From a virus (Duplodnaviria > Caudoviricetes): a DNA stretch of 64,000 nt. Position numbers and translations under genes: made by a program. The notes beneath the pieces were generated by a model. That model had not been told where the DNA came from. It saw nothing but the letters and a program-made list of their open reading frames with translations, and ran no database searches. This document shows positions 452 to 63,185 of the stretch, piece by piece. Where the stretch lies: IMG/VR virus record IMGVR_UViG_3300022666_000111. One strand, given 5' to 3'. Position 1 is the stretch's first letter. Each line of letters starts with the position of its first letter.

Positions 452-473
452 CTACACCGGGACCTCGGTGTAG
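452..473. promoter_or_regulatory. Divergent pair of GGTGTAG elements (CTACACC-N8-GGTGTAG)
   Basis: Back-to-back copies between divergent genes 60..443(-) and 535..2295(+). Confidence 0.7.
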
Positions 474-493
474 ATAGACCTGTCCAGGCCGTT

Positions 494-519
494 TATGCCG
501 CTGGCCGTGGAGGATCAAC
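494..519 (-). promoter_or_regulatory. GTTGATC-N13-GGCATA element
   Basis: Exact match to the recurrent bipartite motif, oriented toward the MazG-like gene. Confidence 0.65.
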
Positions 520-534
520 CGATCGGGAGAAATA

Positions 535-2295
535 ATGGCAAAGATTACGATTCCGGACCCCATAGAAGCGGTGCGTCCCGTCTACGAGAAGTTGCGTGAA
601 ATCCGTGAATCCAAGACGATAAGTCTCAAGCCCAGCCCTTATCTCCGGGAGGAAATCACGGGGTTGGATGGGGAAAAGGTGCCCCTCAAGCTCAGGTACT
701 ACCAGTGCCAGGGGATCTATCACCTGCTGCTCATGCGGAGGATGGTCCTTGGGGATGGTACCGGCTTGGGGAAAACCCTTCAGGCCATCGGATCCGTCTG
801 CTACCTTTGGCCCAAGGAGCCCGCCAACAGGGTCATCGTCATCGCCCCAAAGAGCGCCTTGCGTCAATGGGCGGCGGAGATTCAGCGCTTCACGAAGGGC
901 GTGAGGACGTTCATCGCTTCGGGCTCGTTCGCGGAACGTGAACGAGCTTACGACGCCTTTTTCAATTCCCCGGCCGAAGAGGGTAAGCCCCGGGCTGTCT
1001 TGCTCTTGAACTACCACGTCTTCACGAGGGATTGGCGCCAGGGGCGCGTTCAGCCGCTTCTCCCCAATGGGAGGATCAACCCCAAGGCCCCTGTGACTCC
1101 GGGCTACCTTGACCGGCGCACCGCGCCCGTAGGCAAGGATCTGGTGGTCATCTTCGACGAGGCGACCGCCTTCAAGAACATGCGGACGAAGACCTGGGAA
1201 GTCTGCCGGGAGCTAAGTGACCGCGCGGGTAGGGTCTACGGGCTCACGGCAACGCTGCTCAAGAACAAGCTGGAGGAGGGATTCTCGATCTTCAAGTGCA
1301 TCCACCCCCCAGTGTTCACGACCAAGTCGGCCTTCCTCGACACCTACTGCACGGTGAAGCTGCAAAGCGTGGGGACGGCCAAGGTCCCGATCATCCTGGG
1401 CTACAAGAACCTGGACCTCTTCCGTTCCAGGATCGACCCCTTCTTCCTCGGGCGCCCCAAGCACGCGGTCTCCAATGAGCTACCGACCTTGACGACCCGG
1501 GAGATCGTCTTCGACCTCACCGATGCCGAATGCGCCAAGTACAACGAGGCCCTTACGGGGATCTTCGAGTTGGGCGACGGAGAGGTCAAGGACTACGAGG
1601 AGCACAAGGCATTCGTCAGCCTCATCTATTGCCAGCAGATCGTCAACTCCCTCTACATGCTACGGTTCCAGAAGGACGCCGGGTTCACCTCCGGCATGTT
1701 TGACGACCGCGTCCATACGATCGGCGACGTGAGCAGCAAGGAACAGGAGCTGATCGACCTCATCAGCGAAGACCTTGATGGTGAAAAGGTCATCGTCTAC
1801 ACACGATTCGAGTCGCATGTTGGGCGGCTCGTCAAGCTCCTCGCCAACGCCGGGATCAAGAGCGTACGCATCACGGGGGCTGAGAAGGACAAGGAGCGGA
1901 AGGCATCGCAGGATGCCTTCCAGGACCTCAAGAGTGACACCCGCGTCGTCTTCATCACGGCGGCTGGATCCGAGGCCATCAACCTCCAGGCGGCCTCTGC
2001 CCTCGTGTTCTTCGACTCCCCTTGGTCCTGGGGCGAGTACGTCCAGATCATTGGGCGTATGATTCGCATCGGATCACCCCACACGGGTGTCCTCGTGTAC
2101 CACCTTGTAGCAGAACGTGTAGCTGACACGGCGGACGACCGGCATACGATCGACCTTCACATCTTGCGAACCCTGCGGACGAAGAAGAACCTGATCGATC
2201 GGGTCATTGGTGAAGCTGCCGTGGGGGCGCTTGAATTCGAGGCGGAGGGCTCAACCGTCAAGGACTTGCTGCGGCGGGTCAAAGGCGCGGTGTAG
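535..2295 (+). CDS. SNF2-family (SF2) helicase/ATPase
   Basis: GDGTGLGKT Walker A, FDEAT, LTAT, GSEAINLQ and QIIGRMIRIG motifs. Confidence 0.9.
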   Translation: MAKITIPDPIEAVRPVYEKLREIRESKTISLKPSPYLREEITGLDGEKVPLKLRYYQCQGIYHLLLMRRMVLGDGTGLGKTLQAIGSVCYLWPKEPANRVIVIAPKSALRQWAAEIQRFTKGVRTFIASGSFAERERAYDAFFNSPAEEGKPRAVLLLNYHVFTRDWRQGRVQPLLPNGRINPKAPVTPGYLDRRTAPVGKDLVVIFDEATAFKNMRTKTWEVCRELSDRAGRVYGLTATLLKNKLEEGFSIFKCIHPPVFTTKSAFLDTYCTVKLQSVGTAKVPIILGYKNLDLFRSRIDPFFLGRPKHAVSNELPTLTTREIVFDLTDAECAKYNEALTGIFELGDGEVKDYEEHKAFVSLIYCQQIVNSLYMLRFQKDAGFTSGMFDDRVHTIGDVSSKEQELIDLISEDLDGEKVIVYTRFESHVGRLVKLLANAGIKSVRITGAEKDKERKASQDAFQDLKSDTRVVFITAAGSEAINLQAASALVFFDSPWSWGEYVQIIGRMIRIGSPHTGVLVYHLVAERVADTADDRHTIDLHILRTLRTKKNLIDRVIGEAAVGALEFEAEGSTVKDLLRRVKGAV

Positions 2296-2303
2296 GCATG
2301 AGC

Positions 2304-4594: not shown

Positions 4595-4596
4595 TC

Positions 4597-4959
4597 ATGT
4601 TCATTGGTAGCTTAGTGAATCAGACGGTACGATTGCGGATGGCTTATGATTGCCAGCACGATTGGCAGTACTACAACGCAACCGAGGATCAGTGTTCGAA
4701 GTGTCGCGTTATCGCGACGGAGGAGGGGAAGCGGACCCTGGCAGCTATGGCGGCACGCTTCCATGGGCTTCCGGTCGGTGTAGAAGCTGACCATGCCCCG
4801 GGACTTTCGGCGAGAAGCCGAACAGGAAAGCAGTCAGCGGAAGCTTCAACAAGCCTGGATTCAGGAACGTGTCGCTGCGATTCGGGCGACGGTGAGCGCC
4901 TACGATGTTCTCCGCAGGTTCGGAGTGAAGCTCCAACATGCGGGGGAGACCCGCATTGA
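4597..4959 (+). CDS. Possible small Cys/His protein
   Basis: CQHDW...CSKC motif; overlaps the next gene, so boundaries are uncertain. Confidence 0.3.
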   Translation: MFIGSLVNQTVRLRMAYDCQHDWQYYNATEDQCSKCRVIATEEGKRTLAAMAARFHGLPVGVEADHAPGLSARSRTGKQSAEASTSLDSGTCRCDSGDGERLRCSPQVRSEAPTCGGDPH

Positions 4960-8659: not shown

Positions 8660-9139
8660 ATGAGTGACTTCATCACGGAATGCAACGAGTACAAGGTCCC
8701 TGAACAGGACTTCGTTGGGGCGTGGTGTTCACGATGTCGCCGTGAGGATTGTGTTCGGAGCAGCCAAGGGACGAGCCGCTTTGACGTGCGTACCAAGACG
8801 TGGCAAGAGCGGCTCTTCACCAAGGTCCCGAAGCTGCCCGAAACCGATCCTCGCTTCCCTGGGATTGCTGCCAAGATGTTTCAGGAGACGGACAAGACCG
8901 TGCAAGCGCATGGATGGGATGCCCCTCCGCCGCCAATGCCTGAACCATCTCAAGTAGAATCGCCTCCGCCCGCGCCGGTTTCTGTGGGGCAATACACGAG
9001 GGCGCCCAATCAATCGGGGCGTGTCTTAGGCACGGCCCCGGCCGGTTGGACCCCGAAGGAAGCTGTTATTCGACCTGGGACCCGCATCAAACTTGGTGGT
9101 GGCGGTGTAGGAGAGGGCAGCGACGGAAGTAAGGCATAG
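8660..9139 (+). CDS. Hypothetical protein (CxxCxxxxC, Pro-rich tail)
   Basis: ORF with SD GAGGTG. Confidence 0.6.
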   Translation: MSDFITECNEYKVPEQDFVGAWCSRCRREDCVRSSQGTSRFDVRTKTWQERLFTKVPKLPETDPRFPGIAAKMFQETDKTVQAHGWDAPPPPMPEPSQVESPPPAPVSVGQYTRAPNQSGRVLGTAPAGWTPKEAVIRPGTRIKLGGGGVGEGSDGSKA

Positions 9140-9730: not shown

Positions 9731-9760
9731 CGAAGCCCGCGCAAAAGATCGCGGGCTTCG
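9731..9760. terminator. GC-rich hairpin (terminator or processing site)
   Basis: CGAAGCCCGCG / CGCGGGCTTCG, 11-bp stem with 8-nt loop; no clear U-tract. Confidence 0.5.
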
Positions 9761-9797
9761 GTCTATCTGGTGTAGCAGTTGCTAGGAGAAAACAGCA

Positions 9798-13350: not shown

Positions 13351-13528
13351 ATCCAGGATGCGCCGGGTGGGGCCGATCATGGTTGGACCCATCTCCGTAG
13401 AATTCCACCTTCGACTCTCCGTAGCCGAAGAGGTCCTCGAGGAGCTTGTTGACGACAAGGTCCTCCGCCGCGCAACGCCCGCCGAAAAACGCCAGTACGA
13501 TATCCAGGGTGGTTACTTCCTGGTGTAG
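13304..13528 (+). CDS. Small winged-helix-like hypothetical protein
   Basis: VAEEVLEELVDDKVLRR; stop lies within GGTGTAG. Confidence 0.45.
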   Translation: MNPSNFKQQVKTSLLESRMRRVGPIMVGPISVEFHLRLSVAEEVLEELVDDKVLRRATPAEKRQYDIQGGYFLV

Positions 13529-17407: not shown

Positions 17408-17424
17408 CGGTGTAGTCTGGGGGC

Positions 17425-17857: not shown

Positions 17858-18086
17858 ACCGATCCAGATTCACTACTTGACGACCGGCACGTTCTCTTGG
17901 GAGCTTCACCTGGACAATGAAGAGGAGACGACCATCGCCAGTGTCTGCGGGGGGCCGCTGCCTCGACGAGGGGACCATGTCAGCCATGAGGACTTCGACA
18001 AGCCTCTCAAGGTGACGCGCGTCGTTTGGGATATTCGACGCGGATACGGACTACAAGCCGACGTCTACGTGGATCCGTTGGTGTAG
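17850..18086 (+). CDS. Hypothetical protein
   Basis: SD GGAGG; stop within GGTGTAG. Confidence 0.55.
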   Translation: MAEPIQIHYLTTGTFSWELHLDNEEETTIASVCGGPLPRRGDHVSHEDFDKPLKVTRVVWDIRRGYGLQADVYVDPLV

Positions 18087-21829: not shown

Positions 21830-21854
21830 GCACGTGCCCGGTGTAGATCCGGGC

Positions 21855-23180: not shown

Positions 23181-24379
23181 ATGCTCGTCACGTCCAGCTT
23201 TCAGGGTTCGGTCTACCTTCGGAGCGCACACGCCCTCGATGAGGGCGGCTTGAATGAAATCTACAACGCGAACTACGAGTTCGCGGATGGTGAGGTGAAG
23301 GGCTCTTCTCTTGTCCAAAACGTGGAAATGTACACGGACTACAAGAAGGGCATCGGCCGGGGTATCGTTTACGCCCTCAACCCTGACTACAACTACATCT
23401 ACAAGATCGAGCGACCCCTACGGATCTTCGAGAAGAAGCGCGAAGACTTCCTCTACGCGATCAAGCGAGGTATGGTCGACCTCGACCTCATTGCGAAGCA
23501 GCACCCCAAGCTGACGCAAGAGGCGGCCATTGAAGAGGTCCTCAAAGAGGTCCTTGGTGAGGGCGTCTACTACCTCCAGTACTTCAAGAAGGCCCCCTTC
23601 ATGAAGTACTATGACGGCGTTCAGGTCCACAAGACGGCTGACATGAAGTACTGGGGCAACGTGGGGATCTGGCTTTCGATCATCCAGACCGGCGCGGACC
23701 TGATCGACGGTAACGTCAAGCGGTTCGTCAAGGAGGCGCCGGGGACGGTCCCAGATATCCCTTCGGACATCGTAGAGGAGCTGGTTGACTACACGGCTAA
23801 GGCGGGCGGCCGTATTGGGACGCGTGCCAAGAAGTGGCTCCAAGAGAACATCAAGCCGCCTTACGGGTCCATCAAGGTCTACCGGGGCGTGAAGCTCGAC
23901 AGCTACGATGTCAAAGGGCTCACCGAAGATGCTCAGACTTACTTGGGGCTCTCCAAGCTCACGGACGTCCATAAGGGCGCCGTGGCGACGCTTAGCCGGG
24001 GCGAGCGTCGTCTTGGTCACAGACGCCCCAGATATCCCGAGAGTTCGCCAATTTGGGAGCCATGCACCTCCTCTTGCAAGCTGAGCTGAAGCCCAAGCAG
24101 ATCATCGTCGACCTCACCTTGCTCCCTATGGGCATCCGTACCAAGTTCAGGCACTTCAGCCAGAACGAGGTCATTGCCGCGCCGGGAAAGATCCCGGCGA
24201 AGATCATCTCCATAGGGGTTTCGGAGTACCTCCTGAAGCATCTGGAGACACCCACGCAGTATTCGGACCCTGCTCTCCAGAACTACGAGTGGGTTCCCCG
24301 CTACGGGTTCATCGAAAAGAAGGCCGATCTCGCGCGGAAGATCATGGCCCGTTATCTTGGGACTACAGATATGGTGTAG
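23181..24379 (+). pseudogene. ADP-ribosyltransferase-like gene split by a -1 frameshift near 23998-24001
   Basis: VYRG in the first ORF; SSWSQTPQISREFA and QNEVI in the -1 frame; one extra G in the GGGG run fuses them. Confidence 0.65.
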
Positions 24380-24387: not shown

Positions 24388-24759
24388 ATGGCAGCAACGT
24401 TTGAGCATCTTTCTTGCCCTCTTCCGCTACCTCCCCTCGATCATCTATCCGTTGCAGAGCTAACCGCGTTGCGTCAGGAGCTTCATAGGATAGGGCGCAC
24501 CGCCCGCAAGGAGGCGTCCAAGACCATCCAGAAGATCCCGGGCTTGAATAAGCTCTGGCTCAAGACGATCGCGGTCAAGACCGACGATGAGAATCGCCTG
24601 GCGATCCTTGAGGAGTTCAATCGCGAGCTGGTCAAGCATCCCGAGGCGTTCGTGAAGCACGCCTATGCCAACTCTCTCGTCATCATCGATACGGCCATCC
24701 ACGATGAGGCCATGAAACGCGCAGCTACGACCCCTGTGATGGTGACACGAAGACGTTGA
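24388..24759 (+). CDS. Hypothetical protein
   Basis: ATG 8 nt after GGTGTAG (24373-24379). Confidence 0.6.
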   Translation: MAATFEHLSCPLPLPPLDHLSVAELTALRQELHRIGRTARKEASKTIQKIPGLNKLWLKTIAVKTDDENRLAILEEFNRELVKHPEAFVKHAYANSLVIIDTAIHDEAMKRAATTPVMVTRRR

Positions 24760-24781
24760 TCCCTCGCTGACATCGGTGTAG
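24755..24781 (+). promoter_or_regulatory. Hybrid GTTGATC-N13-GGTGTAG element
   Basis: Links the two motif classes; ATG 8 nt downstream. Confidence 0.7.
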
Positions 24782-27131: not shown

Positions 27132-27263
27132 CCCTCCTAAAATCGAAACCATGATGCAAAGTTCTCTTGACATCGTGGGCATCACATCAAAAGATGGTGG
27201 CGATCATTAGACCTGGTGGTGTAGACATCAGGACAGAACCACATCGGATTCAAGGAGATCAAC

Positions 27264-28006: not shown

Positions 28007-28049
28007 CACAAGGGGGACGGCCGTAAAGCTCGTCCCCCTTGTGCTTTCT
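28007..28049 (+). terminator. Intrinsic terminator
   Basis: 13-bp stem CACAAGGGGGACG / CGTCCCCCTTGTG followed by CTTTCT. Confidence 0.75.
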
Positions 28050-28092
28050 GGTGTAGCTGTAGGGTGTACGTGAGACACTGACGAGGATTTGT

Positions 28093-28458
28093 ATGTCAGA
28101 CCGTAATGTAACGATCGACGCCGCCCGCAGGCTGATCAAGATCCGCATGCAGCAGGCGATTTGCCGTGAGAAACTCAAGGAGCTGGGAGGGACGGACCAT
28201 ATCTGGGAACCTATGCTGATGCTTGCAGACGGCTTCTACGACGAGGCCCTTAAGGATTGGAATGCCCATCTCAAGAGCGTCCCGATGCACATGCATGTCC
28301 GGCTTGCGCTCATCGTTGAGGCTATCTCCCAAGCAACCATTGAGGCGGGCTTCCCTTACAAGGACCACTGCGATGAAGCCTGGATCAAGCGGGTCATCGG
28401 TAACTTCCTGGCCACCTTTGACCCGATGGAGATGCTTGACGGTGTAGGGGACGCTTGA
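28093..28458 (+). CDS. Hypothetical protein
   Basis: SD GAGGA; GGTGTAG at 28050-28056. Confidence 0.55.
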   Translation: MSDRNVTIDAARRLIKIRMQQAICREKLKELGGTDHIWEPMLMLADGFYDEALKDWNAHLKSVPMHMHVRLALIVEAISQATIEAGFPYKDHCDEAWIKRVIGNFLATFDPMEMLDGVGDA

Positions 28459-29825: not shown

Positions 29826-30490
29826 GTGACAACAAGTTCGAAGCCTTGATGCAACACCTTAACGGGATCCGTGAAAAGTACGGCGACGACGCCTACAAAT
29901 CGGCCGCTACGGACATCGCGGGGCAATTCTTGGCGCAAGGAGGGGAGACCGCTGCCTTCGCCCGAGAGGCTTTCAAGGGCGTCGTTGATTTCGACGCCGT
30001 AGAGAAGCAGCGGGCTGAAATGCCTGCGGACAATCCCATCCTGGCGGCCATTCAACAGCAAGTCCCGGGGATCAAGTCACAAGCGCAATTCAACGTCTTC
30101 ATGGCAGCCTTTGACGCCCTGCGGGCCACCATGAACGCCATCTTCACGGGCAACGACGCTGACGAGGCCAAGGGTAAGAAGGCTCTTGAGTCAGCCTATG
30201 AGGCCGCACACAAGGCGACCGAGATCACAGGTAAGCTCACAGACGTCCCGGAGGCCGCTACCAGCAAGGCCGCCGAAGAATTCAAGAACCCTCCACGTCA
30301 ATTCACGGAGCTGGCCGAACAACGTGCCCTCCTCACCGAGCTTGGCGAGATCAAGAGCACCGACGACCTCAACACGTGGTACGCTGCCAACCGCTCCCGT
30401 ATTGACCGGGTTGTAAGTCAATCGCTACGCAACGCTCTCTTCGACTCGATTCGACAGAAGAGGGACGCGCTTTCCGCCTCCTCGGTGTAG
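29822..30490 (+). CDS. Helical hypothetical protein
   Basis: GTGA coupling; stop within GGTGTAG. Confidence 0.6.
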   Translation: MSDNKFEALMQHLNGIREKYGDDAYKSAATDIAGQFLAQGGETAAFAREAFKGVVDFDAVEKQRAEMPADNPILAAIQQQVPGIKSQAQFNVFMAAFDALRATMNAIFTGNDADEAKGKKALESAYEAAHKATEITGKLTDVPEAATSKAAEEFKNPPRQFTELAEQRALLTELGEIKSTDDLNTWYAANRSRIDRVVSQSLRNALFDSIRQKRDALSASSV

Positions 30491-30499: not shown

Positions 30500-30697
30500 A
30501 TGCCACACCCTGATCGAGACCACTGGTGGTATTGTCAAGCCAATGAGACCTTGCTACAAGGCCCTGGGTTTGATTTCAAGACCCTTGTCGCCGTCGAGGC
30601 GAATGACCTTGTCGTGCGGACCGGGATCGACCCGGATAACCCGATCCGGATTCCTCTCCCCTTGCTTGAAAATCTCCTGCGAAAGGCTGAAGGATGA
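30500..30697 (+). CDS. Hypothetical protein
   Basis: ATG 9 nt after GGTGTAG (30484-30490). Confidence 0.55.
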   Translation: MPHPDRDHWWYCQANETLLQGPGFDFKTLVAVEANDLVVRTGIDPDNPIRIPLPLLENLLRKAEG

Positions 30698-32444: not shown

Positions 32445-32476
32445 GGTGTCCTTAGTATGCCGTTGTAGGTAACGGA

Positions 32477-33085
32477 TCAACGAGAAAGCTGTGTCCAAAT
32501 CCAATCGACCCAAGTAGTTCGGCCTTTGGCGGTGGGGTGGAGGAGGTCAGAGCCCATCTCGGCATTGGATTCACGTCCGTCGAGGTAGGGGGTCTTGGAG
32601 TCATTGATCATGGCTTTGAAGGCGTCCAGGCCGGGCACAGCGCGGGCGAGGCAGTCTTTCATGGCGTGACACACGGTGGGGTCGGTTGAGCCGATCTTGG
32701 GCGGACCAAGCCAGACGATGCGGGTTGCTCCGGTACGGTTGAGGCGGTTCAAAAGCGTTGTGAGGTACGGGGGCTCATTGGTGATGATGCGCGTCCCCAT
32801 ACAGGCGTCGTTGGCGCCAAGGGCTACGAGGATGATCGTCGGCTTGAAGGCGCGGGCACGCCAATGCTCCCGGTGGAGGCTGGTCGCCCATTGGATGACG
32901 GTGCTCCCCGCCTTGGGATCGCCGCCAAAGGGGACGCCTTCAGCCTTTGCCTTGGCGGCCAGGTATGGGTAAATGAGGTAGCCGTTACTGTCACCGATGA
33001 GCCAAACGCGATCGGTGGCCTTAATCTCGGCCTTAGCCGTCGTGGCTGTGAGCAGTAGGGCTAGAATCAGGGGAAGATGCTTCAT
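32477..33085 (-). CDS. Secreted SGNH/GDSL hydrolase
   Basis: Signal peptide MKHLPLILALL; IGDS, AGS, LGAND, DLLHP blocks. Confidence 0.8.
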   Translation of the reverse strand: MKHLPLILALLLTATTAKAEIKATDRVWLIGDSNGYLIYPYLAAKAKAEGVPFGGDPKAGSTVIQWATSLHREHWRARAFKPTIILVALGANDACMGTRIITNEPPYLTTLLNRLNRTGATRIVWLGPPKIGSTDPTVCHAMKDCLARAVPGLDAFKAMINDSKTPYLDGRESNAEMGSDLLHPTAKGRTTWVDWIWTQLSR

Positions 33086-33095: not shown

Positions 33096-33134
33096 CTACA
33101 CCAAAGAGGTTGATCTCTCGTAGGGTTAGGCATA
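33096..33134. promoter_or_regulatory. Divergent GGTGTAG (-) and GTTGATC-N13-GGCATA (+) elements
   Basis: CTACACC 33096-33102; GTTGATC 33109-33115; GGCATA 33129-33134; ATG 33143. Confidence 0.7.
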
Positions 33135-34134: not shown

Positions 34135-34159
34135 CCGTGTGTAACGGTAGCGGTATGTT
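34131..34159 (+). promoter_or_regulatory. Sigma70-type promoter of the HNH gene
   Basis: TTGACC-N17-TATGTT, ATG 6 nt later. Confidence 0.55.
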
Positions 34160-34165
34160 GTCAGT

Positions 34166-37152: not shown

Positions 37153-37203
37153 AGCGCCGCTCATACATTGATCGACACCCTCCAGGGGTGTAGTATGGGC
37201 ATC

Positions 37204-39979: not shown

Positions 39980-40369
39980 CTACACCAGATTAGCCGTGTC
40001 GCACAACCCTCGAAGCTGGATTTCAGCGGTATGTAGCGCAGCTTTGTAGACCTGCATCTGCCAGGAGTTGAGCCGCACGCCACGGACCGGAACGAAGAGG
40101 GCCTTCTTGAGCTTGACGCCATCCATCAGACGCCCACCGGGGTAAGTCACCTTGCAGAGTTCGAGGGGATCAACAACAAGCTGACCAAGCACGACGTGGG
40201 CGGCGGAGTCAGCCCCCATGCGACCGTCGTCACAATAGTGTCCAGGGCATGTTGCGACGTCAGCCAGGATGGCCTTGGCGGACCAGAGGACCGTGAGGTG
40301 GTGCATGACAGCACCGGGGAGGTTGTTGAGCGTTTTACCAATGACACTGGAAGTCGTGTGTTGAACCAT
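39980..40369 (-). CDS. Hypothetical protein
   Basis: ATG 9 nt after GGTGTAG; stop within the next GGTGTAG. Confidence 0.55.
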   Translation of the reverse strand: MVQHTTSSVIGKTLNNLPGAVMHHLTVLWSAKAILADVATCPGHYCDDGRMGADSAAHVVLGQLVVDPLELCKVTYPGGRLMDGVKLKKALFVPVRGVRLNSWQMQVYKAALHTAEIQLRGLCDTANLV

Positions 40370-40378: not shown

Positions 40379-40927
40379 CTACACCGGATCAACCTCTAGG
40401 GTGCGGTTTATCTTCTTGAGGTCGTCAAGCTCCTCCAGCTCCTTGGTTATGCTGAACGCCTCCAGCTCCTTGGCTTCCGCCCGCAGCCTTCGAAGCTCCT
40501 TCAATTGCTTGGCGAAGGCCGCCTCTGCTACGGTGATGTTGTCTCGGAGGGACTTCTGGTATGCTTCACGATACTGGTTGAACCGTAGCGCGGCGGCTTC
40601 CAGTGTTAGATCGCACTTCGACTTGGGGTAGGCGTACACCTTACCCACCTCCTCGGAGCGCGTCTTGTATCTCGCGCCGGACCAAATCAGATCGAGCTTG
40701 ATGCCAAGGAAGGCTGGGCCGCCCATCCGGACGGGCCGATCGCGTTCGCCTACGCACGTAAGCATGTGGATCGCCATTGATTGGAGGCTGAGCCCCTTGT
40801 CGACGTAGTAAATGGTCCTTGGGAGGGCGCGTAGGGCGCACCAGTCATCGGCGACGTCTATGGCAGCGTTGGGCTTTGGTGTTACAGGGGGCGCGCAAAG
40901 CTCATCCCAGTCGTCTTCGATGGTCAT
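40379..40927 (-). CDS. Hypothetical protein
   Basis: SD GAGGA; C-terminal coiled coil. Confidence 0.55.
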   Translation of the reverse strand: MTIEDDWDELCAPPVTPKPNAAIDVADDWCALRALPRTIYYVDKGLSLQSMAIHMLTCVGERDRPVRMGGPAFLGIKLDLIWSGARYKTRSEEVGKVYAYPKSKCDLTLEAAALRFNQYREAYQKSLRDNITVAEAAFAKQLKELRRLRAEAKELEAFSITKELEELDDLKKINRTLEVDPV

Positions 40928-41288: not shown

Positions 41289-41321
41289 GCTGCTCCTATG
41301 CCCCAAGGTGCTGAGGATCAA

Positions 41322-42551: not shown

Positions 42552-42586
42552 GCCCTCTGTATGCCGGTCAAGGTTGGGGATCAACG

Positions 42587-43135: not shown

Positions 43136-43411
43136 CTACACCGGGAATCGGTACCACACGAAGCCATGCTCGGTACATTCGGCGACCCCGAGGTTCCCCT
43201 CGAGCTTGAGGTGGCGTACGTCCCCACCCTCCTTGCACATCGGGCAGGGCGCCTTGAAGGAGGCGAGAACCTTGGCGGTCCCACCCCCGGCTTCTGGCGG
43301 GACCTTAACCCAATCGGGGACGTCTCCCCCAAGCAGGAGCATTGTGGGGTCGTCACGGCCAATGGCTGCGACGTCTCCGGGGCGGCGGTTGAACCATTCG
43401 GTTGCCATCAT
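43136..43411 (-). CDS. Small Zn-ribbon protein
   Basis: CPMC...CTEH; SD AAGGAG. Confidence 0.55.
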   Translation of the reverse strand: MMATEWFNRRPGDVAAIGRDDPTMLLLGGDVPDWVKVPPEAGGGTAKVLASFKAPCPMCKEGGDVRHLKLEGNLGVAECTEHGFVWYRFPV

Positions 43412-45337: not shown

Positions 45338-45802
45338 CTACACCGCGCGCTTCTGGTCGCGCTCGTAGGACATCTTGACGGCGTGCTCTTCGGGGCTGAG
45401 GGTGATGGTGCTATCAGGGCTGCCGTTCCAGTAAGGCTCCAGCCCGGCTGCCTCGAGGGCTGCCAAGACCAGGGCGCCGACCTTGGTGGTGTCAAGCCCG
45501 ATCGGGCCGAGCTGCTGGCTGTCAAGCTGGCCGAACCGGATGTGAAGGGTCTCTCCATCCAAGAAGCTCTCGGTGTCTTGGTGGTGGTAGAACACCGAAC
45601 CGTTGACCTTCTTGCCCTTGTTGACGCGAATGACGGCGTCTTCAGTGATCGCGTAGCCTGCGCAAGAGGAGCAGCATTCGTAGTTCTGCCTGGCGATCAG
45701 GCCCATGGCGCGCATTGCCGCGAATGCCTTGTTGAGGCGGTACTTCATGTCGGTAACGGCGCTGGTGATTTCGTAGCTGGGGCGGTAGTGGTGGCGGCTC
45801 AT
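45338..45802 (-). CDS. DUF6891-like protein
   Basis: L.KAF..M...G.IARQN..CC.SC, FYH.QD, WNGSPD. Confidence 0.65.
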   Translation of the reverse strand: MSRHHYRPSYEITSAVTDMKYRLNKAFAAMRAMGLIARQNYECCSSCAGYAITEDAVIRVNKGKKVNGSVFYHHQDTESFLDGETLHIRFGQLDSQQLGPIGLDTTKVGALVLAALEAAGLEPYWNGSPDSTITLSPEEHAVKMSYERDQKRAV

Positions 45803-45810
45803 GCCCTATG

Positions 45811-45843
45811 TATGCCGGGGCAGGCAGGGGATCAACGGTGTAG
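45811..45843. promoter_or_regulatory. Abutting divergent elements: GTTGATC-N13-GGCATA (-) and GGTGTAG (+)
   Basis: TATGCC 45811-16, GATCAAC 45830-36, GGTGTAG 45837-43; each start codon 8 nt away. Confidence 0.75.
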
Positions 45844-46914: not shown

Positions 46915-46943
46915 GTCCCTAGTATGCCGAGGGTCCTTGGCGA

Positions 46944-47417
46944 TCAACAGAATCTTGCGAGGTCCTTTTGAAGGTCCAGGCTTCGAGGGCATTCGTCAAG
47001 GAGGTGGAGGACCCGCTGAAGCTCTCGAGGTGGAACCTCTTGCAGGACGTTCTTGGCATCCAAGAGCTGCTCGATAGCATACTCAGGGTCTTCCAGTACG
47101 TAGCCCGGATGGCTACGCCGACTACGGCGGGCTGTGCCCCTACAGTAGTTGTAGAACTCATTGTGAAGGGCCGTCCACAAAGTATCACGGAACGCCCGCT
47201 TTGGGCGGCTCAACCAGACCTCTGACTCCAAGAGGCGGAGGAAGAGATGCTGAACGACGTCGTCCAAGTCCTCGGGGTTCTCAAGGTAGGCCAAGGTCCA
47301 TACACGGACAGCCTCCTGACAAGTCACGATGAATTCGTTCGCGGTGAGAGGGGCGACTCGGAGGGGAGTGAAGAGCCTTCTGGCTTGTCTATAGGATTCG
47401 TAGTCTGTTACGTTCAT
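46944..47417 (-). CDS. ECF-like sigma factor, region 2 only (region 4 apparently truncated)
   Basis: EDLDDVVQHLFLRLL...FRDTLWTALHNEFYNYCR resembles ECF region 2; GTTGATC-N13-GGTGTAC upstream (47426-47452). Confidence 0.55.
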   Translation of the reverse strand: MNVTDYESYRQARRLFTPLRVAPLTANEFIVTCQEAVRVWTLAYLENPEDLDDVVQHLFLRLLESEVWLSRPKRAFRDTLWTALHNEFYNYCRGTARRSRRSHPGYVLEDPEYAIEQLLDAKNVLQEVPPRELQRVLHLLDECPRSLDLQKDLARFC

Positions 47418-47551
47418 GCAGGTGAGTACACCGATGAATCGTTCAGATCAACAGAATCTTGCAGGCGACGGCGTTCGGATGCCTTGAGCTTCCAGGAGGT
47501 GCGGGCTCCATTCAGATGCCTTGATTAATCTACTTGTAATTCTGATGAGGC

Positions 47552-49527: not shown

Positions 49528-50104
49528 CCCCTGGCTCTACACCGTGTTCCTCCGGGATTCGGAAAACATCGTCCAGGGTAATGATGACAGCTTCACCGTT
49601 GCGCATGATCTTCACGCGGGTCTTGTCATCGGCCTCACGGTAGATCTCGTAGTCGGATGGGAGGTTGCCGGATCGGTAGTGCCACTCAAGGGCGAAGAGG
49701 GCGTGGATGCCCGTTCCCGCCAACGTCACGCCACGCACGACGCGATCGATCAGGGACATAGGGAATGCCCGCATCATTCCCTTGAGGTCTGCGGCCGGTA
49801 GGTTGAGGCCGTCAATGATGAATTCGACGAGCCCCGCGACATCCTGGTTACGATAAGCATCGTACCAGTGACGCATGTAGCCGTGGATCCCACGCGTGAC
49901 GAGCTGCGTGAGCATCTCACTTGTTACTACGGGGTGGGGGCCAAGTGACGCCATGTAGGTGCGCATGTCAAACGTGGCCTTGGCAGCGGCGTCTTCAAGT
50001 CCGTAGGTGTAGTCTCGGGGCTTCCCCTCAAAGACAATGAGGGGTTTACCTGACGACCCTTGTAGCTCGTTCCAGAATGAATCGAAGTCGTCATCCATGT
50101 TCAT
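49505..50104 (-). CDS. Hypothetical protein
   Basis: SD GAGGTG. Confidence 0.55.
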   Translation of the reverse strand: MNMDDDFDSFWNELQGSSGKPLIVFEGKPRDYTYGLEDAAAKATFDMRTYMASLGPHPVVTSEMLTQLVTRGIHGYMRHWYDAYRNQDVAGLVEFIIDGLNLPAADLKGMMRAFPMSLIDRVVRGVTLAGTGIHALFALEWHYRSGNLPSDYEIYREADDKTRVKIMRNGEAVIITLDDVFRIPEEHGVEPGDARRKPL

Positions 50105-50548: not shown

Positions 50549-50565
50549 CTACACCGCTGGTGTAG
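50549..50565. promoter_or_regulatory. Palindromic bidirectional element CTACACC-GCT-GGTGTAG
   Basis: Between divergent genes. Confidence 0.7.
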
Positions 50566-50715
50566 GTGGTGAGGCTAGACGTTTGTTGCTTCGACGGCAA
50601 CCCTCATGTATATGATCCCCTTCCAGGATCCCAAAGCCCAGAAAGGATGGCGATGGCAAGTGGCGAAGGGATCGGCAACGTCGAGCAACGACGCCCAACC
50701 CTCAAGGAGATTGTA

Positions 50716-52622: not shown

Positions 52623-53333
52623 ATGAGCATTGAACTCCCAGATAAACTAACACCGCTCACAAAAGTTGATCTCATCGAGGCGCTTTGGATGGGGCATCTG
52701 GCATACTTCGGCGCTCCTCCCTCTAAAGAGTGTCTCTGGATTGTTGCGGCACAGGTCATTTTGGAAACGGGCCTCAAATACTGTCATAACTATAATCTAG
52801 GAAATGTTAAGTCGAAGGACGGGGACGGCTTTGACTACCAATTCTTCGGATGCGGTGAAGAGGTCTCCCTCGCGACCGCCAATGCTTGGAAGGCCAAAGA
52901 CCCGAGCCTCGTCAAGATCAAGCGAATCTACCAGGTGAACGGAAAAGACCGGGCATCGGTCTGGGTTGACCCGCCGCATTGGGTGAGCCGGTTCCGAGCC
53001 TTTCACACAGCGGAGGAGGGCGCCCTTGACCACGTAGCGCTTCTCGCCCGGCGCTTCCCCTATGCGCTTGAAGCCGCCAAGCGTAAGGACATCCGGGGGT
53101 ACGCCCATGCCCTGAAGCAGGCGGGCTACTACACGGCGGATGAGGGGCAGTACACGGCAACGATCGTGGGGAGCTACGTGATCGCCGAGAAGGTCCCCGT
53201 GGACTATGACGCCCTCCCCGTCTTGACGGACGCCCAAGGCGAGCAGCTCATGAACCTCGTCGCACGGTCCATCCAAGCCAGTGTGGATGACTACCTCCAA
53301 GAATGCCGTGAGGACGAGCCCGATACGGTGTAG
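52623..53333 (+). CDS. GH73 (FlgJ/glucosaminidase-like) peptidoglycan hydrolase
   Basis: AQVILETG, NYNLGNVK, FRAF, LKQAGYYTA. Confidence 0.75.
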   Translation: MSIELPDKLTPLTKVDLIEALWMGHLAYFGAPPSKECLWIVAAQVILETGLKYCHNYNLGNVKSKDGDGFDYQFFGCGEEVSLATANAWKAKDPSLVKIKRIYQVNGKDRASVWVDPPHWVSRFRAFHTAEEGALDHVALLARRFPYALEAAKRKDIRGYAHALKQAGYYTADEGQYTATIVGSYVIAEKVPVDYDALPVLTDAQGEQLMNLVARSIQASVDDYLQECREDEPDTV

Positions 53334-53636: not shown

Positions 53637-54000
53637 CTTCAACGCGGTCTTCGCGGTCATCAATGGCCGCGAAGTGCTTGTTTGGATGGTTGCCCTCTTC
53701 GAATTCCAAGAGGGCTAGGTTGGCGACGTCAACCAAAAACTCCACGTTCCCCGTCTCAGCATAGCGGTCAACGCGGGCCTTGATGGCCTTGAGGAGGTCG
53801 TACTTAGGCTTCCCGGGGGAGTTGAGCCTGCCGTAACGGAGCGCCCCCATAACGAGACGGTTCCGCATGAGCTTCTCGAAGCGTGGGCTCCATTCGGTTT
53901 TCCACAGGTCCTCCGAGTAAGCGACGCTATTCTCGGTAAGCTCCGGGAGCCCGGCCGCCCAACGCCAAAGGTTCTTGATGAAAAAGGCGCGATCCATCAT
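53623..54000 (-). CDS. Conserved phage hypothetical protein
   Basis: MRNRL.MGALRYG, TGN.EFLVDVAN.A..EF. Confidence 0.65.
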   Translation of the reverse strand: MMDRAFFIKNLWRWAAGLPELTENSVAYSEDLWKTEWSPRFEKLMRNRLVMGALRYGRLNSPGKPKYDLLKAIKARVDRYAETGNVEFLVDVANLALLEFEEGNHPNKHFAAIDDREDRVEVKKP

Positions 54001-55709
54001 AGCTGGTGTCCCCATTCGGAATCATCCGGTTGACCAGGATCCTCGAGGTAGCCCTCGGGGATCCTCCCATTCTCTACGAGCTTTCCCATGAGCTTGCGGG
54101 TCCGGTCAAGGGTAGCCTCATCCGGGATGCCTGCCTTGCGGGGCCGGGGGAGGATGCTCATAAGCCAGAAGGCTTCAACCGGCTTGAGCTGCCCCGGTGT
54201 GACCTTGAAGTAGTGCTTGGAAGCCGGGCCGATCCCGTAGAGGTCCGGGCCGTATTCGACGACGTTGAGGTATAGCTCGATGATCTTGTCCTTGAGGTAG
54301 CAAGACTCGATCGCCTGGGCCAAGAAGAACTCCTGCGCCTTACGCCCCAAGGTCTTATCGCGACGAAGCCAGAGGTTCTTCGCGAGCTGCATGGTGATCG
54401 TTGAGCCGCCTCGGTGGAAGCGCCCGAGCTTGAGGTTGTCCAGGAGGGAGTTACGGTAAGCGCCGATGTCAACGCCTCTGTGTGCGACGTAGCCGGGGTC
54501 CTCCATGGTGATGGCCGCGTTGATGAGCCCCTCGGGAATCGCCTCAAGGGGGACCCAATCGGCGGAGCCTGGGCCGGACGTGCGGTCTACGAGGTCGTTC
54601 TTGGAGGAGTAGACCTTGTAGGTGAACGGCTTGGCAAGCGCCTTGAGCTTGGCCGCGTCACACTTCGCGCGACAGGATGTGTTGACATGTAGGGAAGGTT
54701 TGTCCCCATAACCAACGCGGAAGTCCACGTCTCCGGTGAACGTGATGCCTTCAAGAGGCTCACGAAGCCCCACGGGGAGGCTGGCGACCCAAGCCGAGCA
54801 TGCGCCCTTGCCATCGATCGTCTTGGCGTCAGGAATCCATGAGGCGTCTGCGAAGCCCTCAAGGTTGGCCGTGATGACTTTGCGGTTGGTGATCGTCAGT
54901 ACCACCATCTTGTCGAAGACCACGGGAACAGCGTTCAGCCACTCGTGCTGGAGCACGGCGCCTCCGATTTGGACCTCAATGGGCTCGCCGTAACGCACGA
55001 CGACCTTCTCGAGGCGTTGCCCCATGGCGATGACGCTTTGAGCCATCGCCTTCCTCCCGTCCTTGGAAATCATCGCCTTCTCAACAGCGATCTCAGGACC
55101 TCCTTCGGGCTTGATGGTGACCTTGGCGACGGTGCCAAGGTCGTCCTTGAGGTTCAGGGCGGCGCCTTGTAGGGACCAGGACGTTGTGGGGTATGTGTGA
55201 ATCGGCTGGAGGTACTTCCCAGAAGCCTCAGTGAGGGTGATGTCGTCCTTGGCCTTTCGGACGCCCTTGAAGGTCGCCTCGAAGTCTGGGTTGGTGGCCT
55301 CGCCGGTTTCGGCGGTGATGGTCCCCTGGTCATCAAGGGCAGCGTTGTGCAGCACGGCCTTGAGGCTTCCCTTGAAGACCGTGACCGTGAGCCCCGAGGC
55401 TGTGACCTTACGCTCGGAGGGGTTTGTGGGCTTGCTATCGCCCAAGGTGACGGCTGCCCAGCCTCCTTGGATTTCCACCCGGCCTCCCCAGCTTACGCGC
55501 ACGTTTGGCAACGACGCCGTGAGGTTGGGGCGGTTGACGTGGAGGCTCAGACGAGAGTACCCCAAGCGTGGGCTCACGTCACCAACGGTGACGCCAGGGT
55601 AGTTCTTCTCGACGTGCCATCGGATGGCCATAGGGGTCGCCGCGTAGAAGCCGGTCCCGAGGGCAAGCACCGAGATCGCGACCAGGGCTGTTTTATGCCG
55701 AAAGGTCAT
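53997..55709 (-). CDS. Biosynthetic peptidoglycan glycosyltransferase (GT51, MtgA-like) with long N-terminal region
   Basis: N-terminal TM; ED..Y..H.G, GGSTITMQLAKNL, RKAQE, K..IIE.YLN..EYG, LP.P. Confidence 0.9.
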   Translation of the reverse strand: MTFRHKTALVAISVLALGTGFYAATPMAIRWHVEKNYPGVTVGDVSPRLGYSRLSLHVNRPNLTASLPNVRVSWGGRVEIQGGWAAVTLGDSKPTNPSERKVTASGLTVTVFKGSLKAVLHNAALDDQGTITAETGEATNPDFEATFKGVRKAKDDITLTEASGKYLQPIHTYPTTSWSLQGAALNLKDDLGTVAKVTIKPEGGPEIAVEKAMISKDGRKAMAQSVIAMGQRLEKVVVRYGEPIEVQIGGAVLQHEWLNAVPVVFDKMVVLTITNRKVITANLEGFADASWIPDAKTIDGKGACSAWVASLPVGLREPLEGITFTGDVDFRVGYGDKPSLHVNTSCRAKCDAAKLKALAKPFTYKVYSSKNDLVDRTSGPGSADWVPLEAIPEGLINAAITMEDPGYVAHRGVDIGAYRNSLLDNLKLGRFHRGGSTITMQLAKNLWLRRDKTLGRKAQEFFLAQAIESCYLKDKIIELYLNVVEYGPDLYGIGPASKHYFKVTPGQLKPVEAFWLMSILPRPRKAGIPDEATLDRTRKLMGKLVENGRIPEGYLEDPGQPDDSEWGHQL

Positions 55710-56230: not shown

Positions 56231-56295
56231 GGACCCCAACTACACCGATGGCTCCTTGGGGTCCAGCTAGCCTTTCGATAACGATGTCATTGGTG

Positions 56296-57661: not shown

Positions 57662-57672
57662 CGCCCCAGGGA

Positions 57673-58170
57673 CTACACCGAGGGGGAGGGCTTCCAGAAA
57701 GACAGGCAGTGATCCTTCGGTTCGTCTACGCTGACGTCTGGCATCCTGATCGTCGGCACGGCGGCCTCTTCAACAACGAATCGGAAGAATTCGTGTGTCT
57801 TCGGAACTTGACCAAACCGAATGTGCCCAACGGCTAGGAGGTGCGGGATGTCCCCGTATTTGGCCTCGGTTTCAGTATCGTACACGTCGTCGGCCTTCAC
57901 GTCCTTAGCGCGTAGCACAACGCCAAAGGTTGTCCGGGCTCGAGCGACGATGCGGGCAGCGTCCTCGGTATTGCCGATGGCTGTTGTGATGGCGTCAACC
58001 ACAGCCTTGAGGTGATCGTTTGCCGTTCCGGGGGTGGGAATGGTGACGAATAGCTCGACGGCCAGGTGAAGGGCGCGGAGGTTATTCTCGTCGCGTTTCA
58101 GGGCGTCTCCGCGTGTGGAAGCCTCAACGGAGCCAACGACCTTGTTATAGAGCGTGATGTCTGTGGCCAT
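57673..58170 (-). CDS. Hypothetical protein
   Basis: SD GGAG; stop within GGTGTAG. Confidence 0.55.
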   Translation of the reverse strand: MATDITLYNKVVGSVEASTRGDALKRDENNLRALHLAVELFVTIPTPGTANDHLKAVVDAITTAIGNTEDAARIVARARTTFGVVLRAKDVKADDVYDTETEAKYGDIPHLLAVGHIRFGQVPKTHEFFRFVVEEAAVPTIRMPDVSVDEPKDHCLSFWKPSPSV

Positions 58171-61638: not shown

Positions 61639-61733
61639 GGTGAGCCCCTACACCGCAAGTGGTGGGAGGCTCAAAGAATATTTGGTTTTAAGAGCTGCGG
61701 GGTGTCGGAGGGGAGCGTTGGCAGTGTCGAGTG

Positions 61734-62687
61734 TCAGGAGTCTTTGTCAACGAGGGGGAGCTTCGACCACTCGTCAAGGGTGACGTCCTTGTACCAGGGG
61801 CGTTCATCGGTCATGATGATGCGGCGGGTAGCGCTGATGATCTCGCGCCAATCCTGCTCACCGTCACGACGCTCGGACCCAAAGACGCGGATCTTGCGTC
61901 CGGGCTTGTGAATGATGAATTGCGCCCAGTACTTGTGTTCAGGATCGTTTTCCACGGACATCCGAACGTAGGCGGTCTTGCCGTAGGACGTGTGGACGAA
62001 GACGTCAGCCGGGGCCTTCTGCGAGGCACGGTAGGGCTCCACCGTAGCGTTGATGGTGAAGGACGTCTTCGGATCCTGAACCTTGCGGCCAGACTCCGTC
62101 ACGATGACGAGGTACCGCTGGTCGTCGATGGTATAGGGGGCGACGGCCGCACGGCCTTTCCCTTGCTCCATAACACGGGGAAGGACCTCTTCGCGAGCGA
62201 ACTTGCAGAGCTGTTGAAGGTGTGAAGGCTCTCCTTTTGCCTCGTAGATGGCTTCACCCTCTTGCGCGAGGTCTCGCAAGAGGTCGCTGATGTCTGGATC
62301 AAGCGTCTCGACCGTCACGGGGGCGTCTTCGGGCTCGGGCTCAATGGCGGGCACCGGCGCCTCAAGGGTCGCCAAGGCGGCATGAGCTTGTTCAAGGGCC
62401 GGTACCGCTAGCTCCTTGAACATGGGGGCCGTCTTCCCGCTGTTGACCACGATCTCGCGGAACATGCTCTGCGCCTTACGGTATTGCGAACGAACGCGCT
62501 GATAGACCTTCGGCGCGTAGTTCATGCGCTGGCATGTATCTGCCAAGAGGTGATGCCATTGATCCGCTACGGACTGCATCCCCAAGTGGTGGTTTGTGAC
62601 CAACGCGGCCACAAGAAGACGAATGACGACAGACTCTGATCCAAATTGAGTACGTTCCATAACTTCACCGTAGGTCCACACGTTCAT
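61734..62687 (-). CDS. Hypothetical protein
   Basis: Long ORF with phage-like codon usage. Confidence 0.6.
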   Translation of the reverse strand: MNVWTYGEVMERTQFGSESVVIRLLVAALVTNHHLGMQSVADQWHHLLADTCQRMNYAPKVYQRVRSQYRKAQSMFREIVVNSGKTAPMFKELAVPALEQAHAALATLEAPVPAIEPEPEDAPVTVETLDPDISDLLRDLAQEGEAIYEAKGEPSHLQQLCKFAREEVLPRVMEQGKGRAAVAPYTIDDQRYLVIVTESGRKVQDPKTSFTINATVEPYRASQKAPADVFVHTSYGKTAYVRMSVENDPEHKYWAQFIIHKPGRKIRVFGSERRDGEQDWREIISATRRIIMTDERPWYKDVTLDEWSKLPLVDKDS

Positions 62688-62726
62688 CAAGGACGGGAGG
62701 GCGGACGTTCACCCGTCAGAACGTAC

Positions 62727-63149
62727 CTACACCGGGTCGTCGTCGGAATCCTCAATAAGGTGGTCAAAGACGGTTTTTGACTGCTTCTTAGGCTTGAAGG
62801 GTCTGATAGGGGGCAGCTCTAGCAGGAGGTGGTCAAAAAGGGTGACTTCCTGTGGCGGGGGCTCCTGGTACGTATTCTGAACCGTGGCGTTTGGGGTCTC
62901 CACCACGATCACGTTTGACTCACCGTCCATAGGAGGGTAACGGCTTGGGAGGTGGTGGAGCGCCCGGTTACGTGGCTGGGTCTTGTCCGATACCAAGGTC
63001 ACCTCCACCGACCATCCTGGGGAATCCGCGTCTTCGGTTACGTTGACGCTCACGACGAAGGGGTCCCGGCTGAGCCCTCTGGCGTGTAGCTGAAAAGCTT
63101 CTCGCGCCTCAAACGGATAATACATGCGCCAGGTGACTTGCGAGGGCAT
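62727..63149 (-). CDS. Hypothetical protein with two FDHL acidic motifs
   Basis: TLFDHLLLE and KTVFDHLIEDSDDD. Confidence 0.6.
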   Translation of the reverse strand: MPSQVTWRMYYPFEAREAFQLHARGLSRDPFVVSVNVTEDADSPGWSVEVTLVSDKTQPRNRALHHLPSRYPPMDGESNVIVVETPNATVQNTYQEPPPQEVTLFDHLLLELPPIRPFKPKKQSKTVFDHLIEDSDDDPV

Positions 63150-63185
63150 GCCCGATGCTACACCATCGGTGTAGGTGCATCCATG
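63147..63185. promoter_or_regulatory. Symmetric bidirectional unit CAT-N8-CTACACC-ATC-GGTGTAG-N8-ATG
   Basis: Directly visible between divergent start codons 63149 and 63183. Confidence 0.8.

Follow-up and report, generated by a model that had tools for sequence, protein, structure and literature searches.

A GGTGTAG box before gene starts in a clade of huge phages: a probable -10-type promoter element, possibly for leaderless mRNAs

Introduction

The DNA examined here is a stretch of 64,000 nucleotides (nt) from a virus of the Caudoviricetes (IMG/VR record IMGVR_UViG_3300022666_000111), and we refer to this whole stretch as the window. A seven-base word, GGTGTAG, stands shortly before many of its start codons on both strands. 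This raises the question of whether the word acts in the DNA, as a promoter, or in the mRNA, as a signal for translation or processing. The initial annotation of the window had taken it for a single-box, -10-type promoter with transcription starting so near the start codon that many mRNAs would be leaderless. We observed that the statistics, the spacing and the conservation of the box fit this proposal well. We consider it likely that (C)GGTGTAG is a -10-type promoter element acting at the level of DNA, while our confidence that the mRNAs are strictly leaderless is somewhat lower.

Results

Association of the GGTGTAG box with gene starts

We observed 39 exact copies of GGTGTAG on the two strands of the window, while dinucleotide-preserving shuffles gave 4.85 +/- 2.08 copies (maximum 10). 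An ATG followed the box at a gap of 8, 9, 10 or 11 nt in 9, 9, 3 and 2 copies, respectively (i.e. in 23 of the 39), where about 0.6 per offset and about 2.4 in total would be expected. With the copy at 13522, which precedes a GTG start at a gap of 9 nt, and the variant GGTGTAC at 47426 on the minus strand, the start-proximal sites number 25 (Table 1), and the start codon is ATG in 24 of them. Apart from this GGTGTAC, the one-mismatch variants of the box were without start association, and the 7-mer is therefore close to invariant. A C directly precedes the box in 19 of 24 window sites. All the coordinates and gaps reported earlier could be reproduced.

To avoid circularity, genes were called with a periodic Markov model and their starts were picked on coding score alone. 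GGTGTAG was the most enriched 7-mer in the region from -30 to -1 of these starts (19 of 94 genes, against 0.69 expected), followed in second place by Shine-Dalgarno (SD) words of the AGGAGA type. The box-adjacent starts also agreed with the boundaries of protein domains, as the zinc finger of ClpX begins at residue 10 and the DUF1848 domain at residue 12.

Genes that closely follow the box mostly lack an SD site, as the initial annotation had noticed: an SD-like tetramer was present in the gap of only 2 of the 25 proximal sites (40379 and 50549, both on the minus strand). In contrast, all eight of the more distant copies that had been listed (the distal boxes of Table 1, except that at 62727) have GGAG, AGGAG, GAGG or AGGA 4-9 nt before the gene start, which agrees with the claim that an ordinary SD site lies between box and start in these cases. 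For the copy at 50559 (+), the SD-led start lies about 87 nt downstream, and an alternative GTG at 50566 directly abuts the box. The copy at 62727 (-) is a ninth distal one, and the start of its downstream gene is uncertain. Non-proximal copies of the shorter word GGTGTA lie 14-80 nt before an SD-led start in 29% of cases in the window and in 13-14% in two related phages (see below), as compared with 0-7% for five composition-matched hexamers. Six copies of GGTGTAG showed no gene association (45, 17274-, 42071, 44351, 50006 and 51539-), and they include the two, at 42071 and 44351, that had been regarded as background.

In 13 of the 39 copies the TAG of the box serves as the stop codon of the upstream gene (the sites so marked in Table 1, and 51539 on the minus strand), and these upstream proteins therefore end in valine. 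Reading frame alone predicts this for one copy in three, which is close to the observed share, and no separate function was assigned to the overlap. Roughly half of the TAG stop codons of the window are supplied by the box.

The location of the box, at the place of a ribosome-binding site with a narrow spacing of 8-11 nt and before genes without an SD, would also suit a signal that replaces the SD in the mRNA and is bound by a phage factor, a host factor or the rRNA. GGTG can pair with CACC in the 3' tail of 16S rRNA. However, it lies 11-14 nt from the AUG, which is too distant for that part of the anti-SD, and an SD function through such pairing was rejected on this spacing. Cluster K mycobacteriophages offer a precedent for a translation signal in their start-associated sequences (SAS), which form a conserved, asymmetric repeat immediately before starts (PMC3203893). 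The distal copies speak against it, since they too are enriched and are then followed by ordinary SD sites.

A -35-like hexamer at one exact spacing

A second box, GGCATA(A/C/G), was found in nine sites with TTGATC exactly 13 nt upstream. An ATG follows this arrangement (class 1) in seven of the nine sites, six times at 7 nt and once at 10 nt. When the window was searched with TTGATC-N-GG[CT][AG]TA, which covers both boxes, we observed 12 matches at N13 and none at the nine other spacings (N9-12 and N14-18). In 3 of these 12 sites GGTGTA(G/C) takes the place of GGCATA, and both boxes therefore occupy the same promoter position. The 13 nt together with the four bases GGnn put the TA 17 bp from TTGATC, and this is the classical sigma70 spacer.

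The 25 copies of GGCATA that lack TTGATC were not associated with starts (a single ATG, at a gap of 12 nt), whereas GGTGTAG is associated with starts on its own. Upstream of the GGTGTAG box there was no sequence information in 21 of 24 window sites, nor was there any in the relatives. The earlier description as a single-box promoter consequently holds for most sites; it does not hold for the three TTGATC-N13 hybrids, which carry a -35-like hexamer.

The context of the start codon was also examined. In the window, a C immediately precedes the start codon in 21 of 25 box genes, compared with 18 of 40 SD genes, and the presumed transcription start site of box genes has a pyrimidine at -1 and a purine at +1. 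Transcription start sites of Mycobacterium tuberculosis usually have a C at -1 followed by a purine at +1 (PMC3898074). The ATG lies 9-10 nt after the TA of the box in 19 of 24 window sites; in two relatives, G001 and G002, it lies 10 nt after it in 55 sites and 9 nt after it in 48 sites, respectively.

G is frequent in the 8-9 nt that separate the box from the ATG (GGGGC, GAGGGG), and in some relatives this stretch is SD-like but too near the ATG (L001:3572, 14063, 17012, 21300). It may serve as a discriminator, or else as a weak SD on read-through transcripts.

Canonical TTGACA/TATAAT-like sites were not enriched in positions 1-40000 (3 against 5.7 expected, and 5 against 5.2 expected). One HNH homing-endonuclease gene (34166-35029) is preceded by TTGACC-N17-TATGTT-N6-ATG (34131-34168), a promoter-like site of near-canonical sigma70 type that has the same leaderless geometry and lacks the CGGTG box.

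Back-to-back boxes between divergent genes

Boxes stand back to back between divergent genes at 452/467, 50549/50559, 63158/63168, 33096/33110 and 45830/45837. The shortest divergent gap that holds two boxes (63149-63183) measures 33 nt. If the box were a translation signal, such gaps would leave no space for separate promoters, and the -35-like hexamer at one exact spacing is a further point against that explanation.

The divergent pairs bear also on the idea that the box is an RNA-processing site, near which a sequence-specific endoribonuclease cuts polycistronic transcripts and so frees leaderless mRNAs. Phage endoribonucleases with short motifs exist, e.g. T4 RegB, which cuts at GGAG, and the box is often found between tightly packed co-directional genes, besides overlapping the upstream stop codon as described above. 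However, no upstream transcript in the required direction is expected in divergent pairs. Cleavage also does not account for the coupling to the -35-like hexamer, for the C at -1 and A at +1, or for the TAnnnT hexamer of G001 (see below), and no candidate nuclease was identified in the window. We regard processing at the box as very improbable.

An asymmetric, oriented and highly invariant short repeat near gene boundaries could equally be the operator of a DNA-binding regulator instead of a promoter element, and the stoperators of Cluster A mycobacteriophages are broadly similar (mentioned in PMC3203893). With 7-8 bp the box is short for an operator, and its rigid distances to the ATG and to the -35-like hexamer, the pyrimidine at -1 with the purine at +1 and the TAnnnT of G001 point to contacts with RNA polymerase and sigma. 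An operator is thus hardly to be expected here.

Conservation in related huge phages

The DNA polymerase of the window has relatives of 47-53% identity on IMG/VR contigs that reach 512 kb. In the neighbourhood of the polymerase gene, examined in 13 distinct relatives with a G+C content of 48-64%, GGTGTA ranked with the most enriched words upstream of ATGs in almost every case, and it was found 8-9 nt before orthologous genes near PolA. In the whole records of five relatives, CGGTGTA-N9/10-ATG occurred 50, 60, 29, 5 and 33 times, while the reversed control gave 0-2.

G001 was examined in full and G002 over 400 kb, and these yielded 87 and 103 start-proximal sites. A C precedes the box in 63/87 and 77/103 of these sites, and it precedes the ATG in 60/87 and 68/103. 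In G001 the box runs on as TATG(G/T)T, with T at position 6 of the hexamer in 58 of the 87 sites; the ATG 10 nt after the TA is here the seventh base after a TAnnnT hexamer. In another relative, G003, TTGAC(A/C)-N13-GGTGTA was found five times, and the control gave no match.

Between lineages, the spacing varies together with the 3' half of the hexamer. TATG(G/T)T is the form of G001 (L101-L119), where the ATG is found 10 nt behind the TA. In G002 (L120-L139) and the window, TAG and a G-rich run stand in its place, and the distance from TA to ATG is mostly 9 nt, i.e. one base less than in G001.

The continuation as TAnnnT has no rationale at the level of RNA. Taken with the distal copies, the -35-like hexamer and the divergent pairs, it makes a translation signal unlikely in our estimate, in spite of the position of the box.

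The box pattern was not enriched in 65 bacterial genomes from five phyla (at most about 6 matches/Mb, against about 134/Mb in the phages). These were 61 genomes of Myxococcota, in which the matches stay within the same limit, and one each of Planctomycetota, Vampirovibrionia, Bdellovibrionota and Opitutales.

A probable -10-type promoter and predicted leaderless mRNAs

The reading of the box as a promoter is based on the fixed 17-bp distance to the -35-like hexamer, the interchangeability of the two boxes, the SD-led distal class and the divergent pairs in 33 nt, and also on the C at -1 with A at +1, the conservation throughout the clade and the TAnnnT form in one relative. These are facts of sequence, statistics, geometry and conservation, and from them we infer that the box is active as a promoter, where transcription starts and that translation is leaderless. 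The -10-type promoter put forward in the initial annotation is thereby supported.

According to this model, a sigma70-family factor, bound to the host core RNA polymerase, would recognise (C)GGTGTAG as the -10 region of a phage promoter class. Within this region, TA would be the -12/-11 pair and CGGTG would occupy -17 to -13 as a non-canonical 'extended -10'; a -35 element would usually be dispensable for this class. Transcription would start at the first base of the ATG that follows the TA by 9-10 nt, or within a few bases of it, and about a quarter of the window genes would be expressed as leaderless mRNAs that are translated without an SD. Where the box lies further upstream, the transcript would have a leader and the gene a normal SD. 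The second class, TTGATC-N13-GGCATA(A/C/G)-N7-ATG, would depend strictly on its -35 element, and the timing of the two classes during infection may differ.

Several points weigh against this model. The T at position 6 of the hexamer is not conserved (3/24 sites in the window and 11/103 in G002). The class-1 ATG follows the TA-anchored hexamer by only 4 nt, a short distance if transcription is to begin at the A of this codon. In the canonical extended -10 the TG stands one base away from the TA, whereas here the two are adjacent. The G-rich run between box and ATG is SD-like in several relatives, the near-invariance of the 8-mer is atypical for promoters of primary sigma factors, and highly diverged phage RNA polymerases may escape Pfam. 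The geometry fits sigma70 better than had been claimed in the initial annotation, since the TA can be placed as the -12/-11 pair and GGTG at -16 to -13.

If the promoter reading is correct, a rule of eight bases would mark the true start codons and the transcription units across a clade of uncultured huge phages (180-510 kb) whose starts are otherwise guessed. Leaderless expression of at least a quarter of the genes would then be a conserved strategy of huge phages, beyond the Thermus phages, and it would bear on why huge phages carry translation-related genes. The promoter would be compact and -35-independent with an unusual specificity determinant, CGGTG at -17 to -13, and would come paired with candidate sigma-like readers encoded by the phages. 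Promoters that work on this principle are known already from bacteria and from Thermus phages, and what is new is the sequence form. Our literature searches gave no description of a (C)GGTGTAG signal in huge or jumbo phages, and a search with the bare motif gave primer matches only.

Comparison with known systems

The closest design is that of the -10-only promoters that abut open reading frames (ORFs) in Deinococcus-Thermus and mycobacteria. In Deinococcus radiodurans, a TANNNT -10 motif 6-7 bp before ORFs was found experimentally to drive leaderless genes (PMC12340547; also PMC4007540); a GGAG gene class coexists with these, and expression is raised by a -35 element at a distance of 17 bp (PMC12340547). 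M. tuberculosis has TANNNT without a -35 consensus, and 22-26% leaderless (PMC3898074).

The window resembles both in having one -10-type box at a fixed short distance before the start codon with a GGAG/SD class alongside, an optional -35 element at 17 bp, and C at -1 with a purine at +1. The TA is found about 11-12 nt before the A of the start codon and the -35 spacer is about 17 bp, and, as in those bacteria, the SD is mostly absent where the box abuts the start and present where it is distal. TANNNT itself is seen in G001, where the ATG is the seventh base after the hexamer as in Deinococcus, while the window and G002 do not have it. Unlike in these bacteria, the conserved part is CGGTG plus TA (-17 to -11), which is nearly invariant, the T at -7 is dispensable in the window phage, and the signal belongs to a phage clade and not to the bacterial genomes that were searched. 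The box also departs from the canonical extended -10 (TGnTAnnnT): because its TG abuts the TA (GGTG-TA), the TG falls at -14/-13 and not at -15/-14.

Among phages, the Thermus phages phiYS40 and P23-45 are closest. The middle and late mRNAs of phiYS40 are leaderless (summarised in PMC3594737), and P23-45 has -35-independent extended -10 middle and late promoters that escape gp39, a phage protein that blocks -35 recognition (PMC3950348). Here too, -35-independent promoters of an extended -10 type would serve many genes and leaderless mRNAs are predicted. As a -35-dependent and a -35-independent class coexist in the window, a temporal switch of the P23-45 kind would be possible. However, the TG abuts the TA inside CGGTGTA, as against TGnTAnnnT, no relation between the phages was detectable, and no gp39-like factor was identified in the window phage.

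The T4 late promoter, TATAAATA, is read by gp55. As in T4, a single highly conserved 8-bp box near -10 appears to suffice without a -35 element, and small sigma-like proteins are found in the phage. Unlike in T4, the sigma-like protein of the window matches Sigma70 region 2 and not the gp55 families, and no gp55 homologue was found in the window; T4 late mRNAs, moreover, are not leaderless as a rule.

With the SAS of Cluster K, the box shares the form of a conserved asymmetric repeat just upstream of many phage starts, a strong preference for ATG and the occasional inclusion of the upstream stop codon (PMC3203893). The SAS is a 13-bp repeat with an AGGAG SD core, 3-7 bp from the start (PMC3203893). 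The box, in contrast, is without an SD core and is separated from the start by 8-11 nt; it couples to a -35-like hexamer, and it is also found at distal positions with a separate SD. The promoters that have been described for jumbo phages, e.g. AR9, are different and have long leaders (PMC5312081).

Candidate readers of the box

The candidates for reading the box are the host primary sigma and a clade-conserved sigma-like protein of the phages. Several features would favour the host factor, namely -35-like hexamers spaced by 17 bp, the TATGKT continuation in G001, the canonical-looking site before the HNH gene at 34166, and the G-rich run behind the hexamer, which resembles the discriminator contacts known for group-1 sigmas. 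On the other side, the near-invariance of the 8-mer, its conservation over very different phage G+C contents and its lack of enrichment in the bacterial genomes would suggest a phage factor. We observed no RNA polymerase beta, beta' or T7-type polymerase in the relatives by Pfam, although very diverged enzymes could be missed by this search. The relatives do encode sigma-like proteins.

The window encodes a sigma-like protein of 157 amino acids (Table 1). Its only homologues were P0001 (99% identical) and P0002 (45%), and just one of these counts as a real homologue. It gave a weak match to phrog_1740 'sigma factor' and, in the search of the window, no gp55-family match; a single-sequence AlphaFold model was too poor (pLDDT 45) and was not used. 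Neither G002 nor G003, both of them complete, showed an orthologue. Since these two use the box nevertheless, the 157-amino-acid protein is unlikely to be the reader of the conserved box.

Another sigma-like protein, of 303-514 amino acids and with a region 2 that is split by an insertion of about 100 amino acids, is orthologous among G001, G002 and G003. The complete G072 has it too, and G005 gave a weak match; all three complete relatives therefore carry it, as does G001, which is 78% complete (loci L017:790-1701(-), L018:619-1686(-), L020:523-1677(-) and G072:C1:306363-307046). It has an N-terminal block with 'FDDLLQHVW' and a second block with 'SVHNIYANWCRTR'. This protein is a better candidate than the 157-amino-acid protein, its co-occurrence with the box being the sole basis for this choice. 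That the box is read by a clade-conserved phage-encoded factor, for which the split-region-2 protein would be the best candidate, and not by the host primary sigma, is in our opinion rather doubtful. If it is so, the phages would run a private -35-independent transcription programme with leaderless mRNAs that circumvent initiation through an SD, and would in this way take over transcription as well as translation across the genome.

Positions of the sites and other genes of the window

The sites described above are listed in Table 1.

Table 1. Positions of box and promoter-like sites, and of the sigma-like gene, in the window.
Element	Position	Strand	Start codon, gap (nt)	Remarks
Proximal GGTGTAG	2289..2295	+	ATG, 8	TAG = stop codon of SNF2 helicase gene
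Proximal GGTGTAG	4777..4783	+	ATG, 9	gene with DnaG-type zinc ribbon
Proximal GGTGTAG	13522..13528	+	GTG, 9	TAG = upstream stop codon
Proximal GGTGTAG	17409..17415	+	ATG, 9	
Proximal GGTGTAG	21840..21846	+	ATG, 8	ClpX gene; zinc finger supports start
Proximal GGTGTAG	24373..24379	+	ATG, 8	TAG = upstream stop codon
Hybrid TTGATC-N13-GGTGTAG	24756..24781	+	ATG, 8	DUF1848 gene
Proximal GGTGTAG	28441..28447	+	ATG, 10	
Proximal GGTGTAG	30484..30490	+	ATG, 9	TAG = upstream stop codon
Hybrid TTGATC-N13-GGTGTAG	37168..37193	+	ATG, 10	HD-domain gene
Proximal GGTGTAG	45837..45843	+	ATG, 8	back to back with class-1 promoter 45810-45835(-)
Proximal GGTGTAG	53327..53333	+	ATG, 9	TAG = upstream stop codon
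Proximal GGTGTAG	63168..63174	+	ATG, 8	back to back with 63158(-), 33-nt divergent gap
Proximal GGTGTAG	452..458	-	ATG, 8	pair partner 467(+)
Proximal GGTGTAG	33096..33102	-	ATG, 10	GDSL lipase-like gene; back to back with class-1 promoter 33110(+)
Proximal GGTGTAG	39980..39986	-	ATG, 8	RNase HII gene; TAG = upstream stop codon
Proximal GGTGTAG	40379..40385	-	ATG, 9	TAG = upstream stop codon
Proximal GGTGTAG	43136..43142	-	ATG, 9	TAG = upstream stop codon
Hybrid TTGATC-N13-GGTGTAC	47426..47451	-	ATG, 8	before 157-amino-acid sigma-like gene
Proximal GGTGTAG	49537..49543	-	ATG, 9	
Proximal GGTGTAG	50549..50555	-	ATG, 11	pair partner 50559(+)
Proximal GGTGTAG	56240..56246	-	ATG, 9	
Proximal GGTGTAG	57673..57679	-	ATG, 11	TAG = upstream stop codon
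Proximal GGTGTAG	61648..61654	-	ATG, 9	
Proximal GGTGTAG	63158..63164	-	ATG, 8	
Distal GGTGTAG	467..473	+		SD-led SNF2 gene from 535
Distal GGTGTAG	9104..9110	+		AGGAG-led ATG 9152
Distal GGTGTAG	9769..9775	+		right after GC-rich hairpin (~9735-9768); AGGAG-led ATG 9798
Distal GGTGTAG	18080..18086	+		AGGAG-led ATG 18106; TAG = upstream stop codon
Distal GGTGTAG	27218..27224	+		AGGAG-led ATG 27264
Distal GGTGTAG	28050..28056	+		just 3' of terminator-like hairpin (11-bp stem) and T-rich tail (28012-28046); GAGG-led ATG 28093
Distal GGTGTAG	45338..45344	-		AGGAG-led ATG 45320; TAG = upstream stop codon
Distal GGTGTAG	50559..50565	+		divergent pair; gene start 50566 (GTG) or 50653 (ATG with AGGA)
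Distal GGTGTAG	62727..62733	-		TAG = upstream stop codon; downstream gene 61734-62690, start uncertain
Class-1 TTGATC-N13-GGCATAA	33110..33135	+	ATG, 7	
Class-1 TTGATC-N13-GGCATAC	32455..32480	-	ATG, 10	
Class-1 TTGATC-N13-GGCATAG	41296..41321	-	ATG, 7	
Class-1 TTGATC-N13-GGCATAC	42559..42584	-	ATG, 7	
Class-1 TTGATC-N13-GGCATAA	43709..43734	-	ATG, 7	
Class-1 TTGATC-N13-GGCATAA	44433..44458	-		no nearby ATG (leadered)
Class-1 TTGATC-N13-GGCATAC	45810..45835	-	ATG, 7	
Class-1 TTGATC-N13-GGCATAC	46922..46947	-	ATG, 7	
Class-1 TTGATC-N13-GGCATAA	493..518	-		upstream of box 452(-)
157-amino-acid sigma-like gene	46944..47417	-		Sigma70 region 2; Pfam PF04542, 26.8 bits against a cut-off of 24

As can be seen from the table, a GC-rich hairpin closely precedes the box at 9769 and at 28050, and these are the two clear cases. 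One terminator scan was noisy, and the terminator-like sites of a second were not enriched.

The window has a G+C content of 59% and is the replication and nucleotide-metabolism portion of a large phage. Searches of the phage collection and of IMG/VR gave no record nearly identical to it. Its genes include those for an SNF2 helicase, a DnaB-like helicase, a family-A DNA polymerase, thymidylate synthase, ClpX, RNase HII, a type IB topoisomerase, and HNH and GIY-YIG endonucleases, together with numerous small ORFs. ClpX (21855-23153) is full-length and has its zinc finger. It was rejected as an indicator of the host, since its identity of 45-50% is spread over proteins of many phyla. A weak DHH/DHHA1 (RecJ-like) match was seen at 30694-31632, and a protein of 570 amino acids with a PBP-type transglycosylase domain is encoded at 53997-55709. 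The type IB topoisomerase gene (34998-35870) lies between the HNH gene and a GIY-YIG/NUMOD3 homing-endonuclease gene (region 34166-36709), with a slight overlap on each side.

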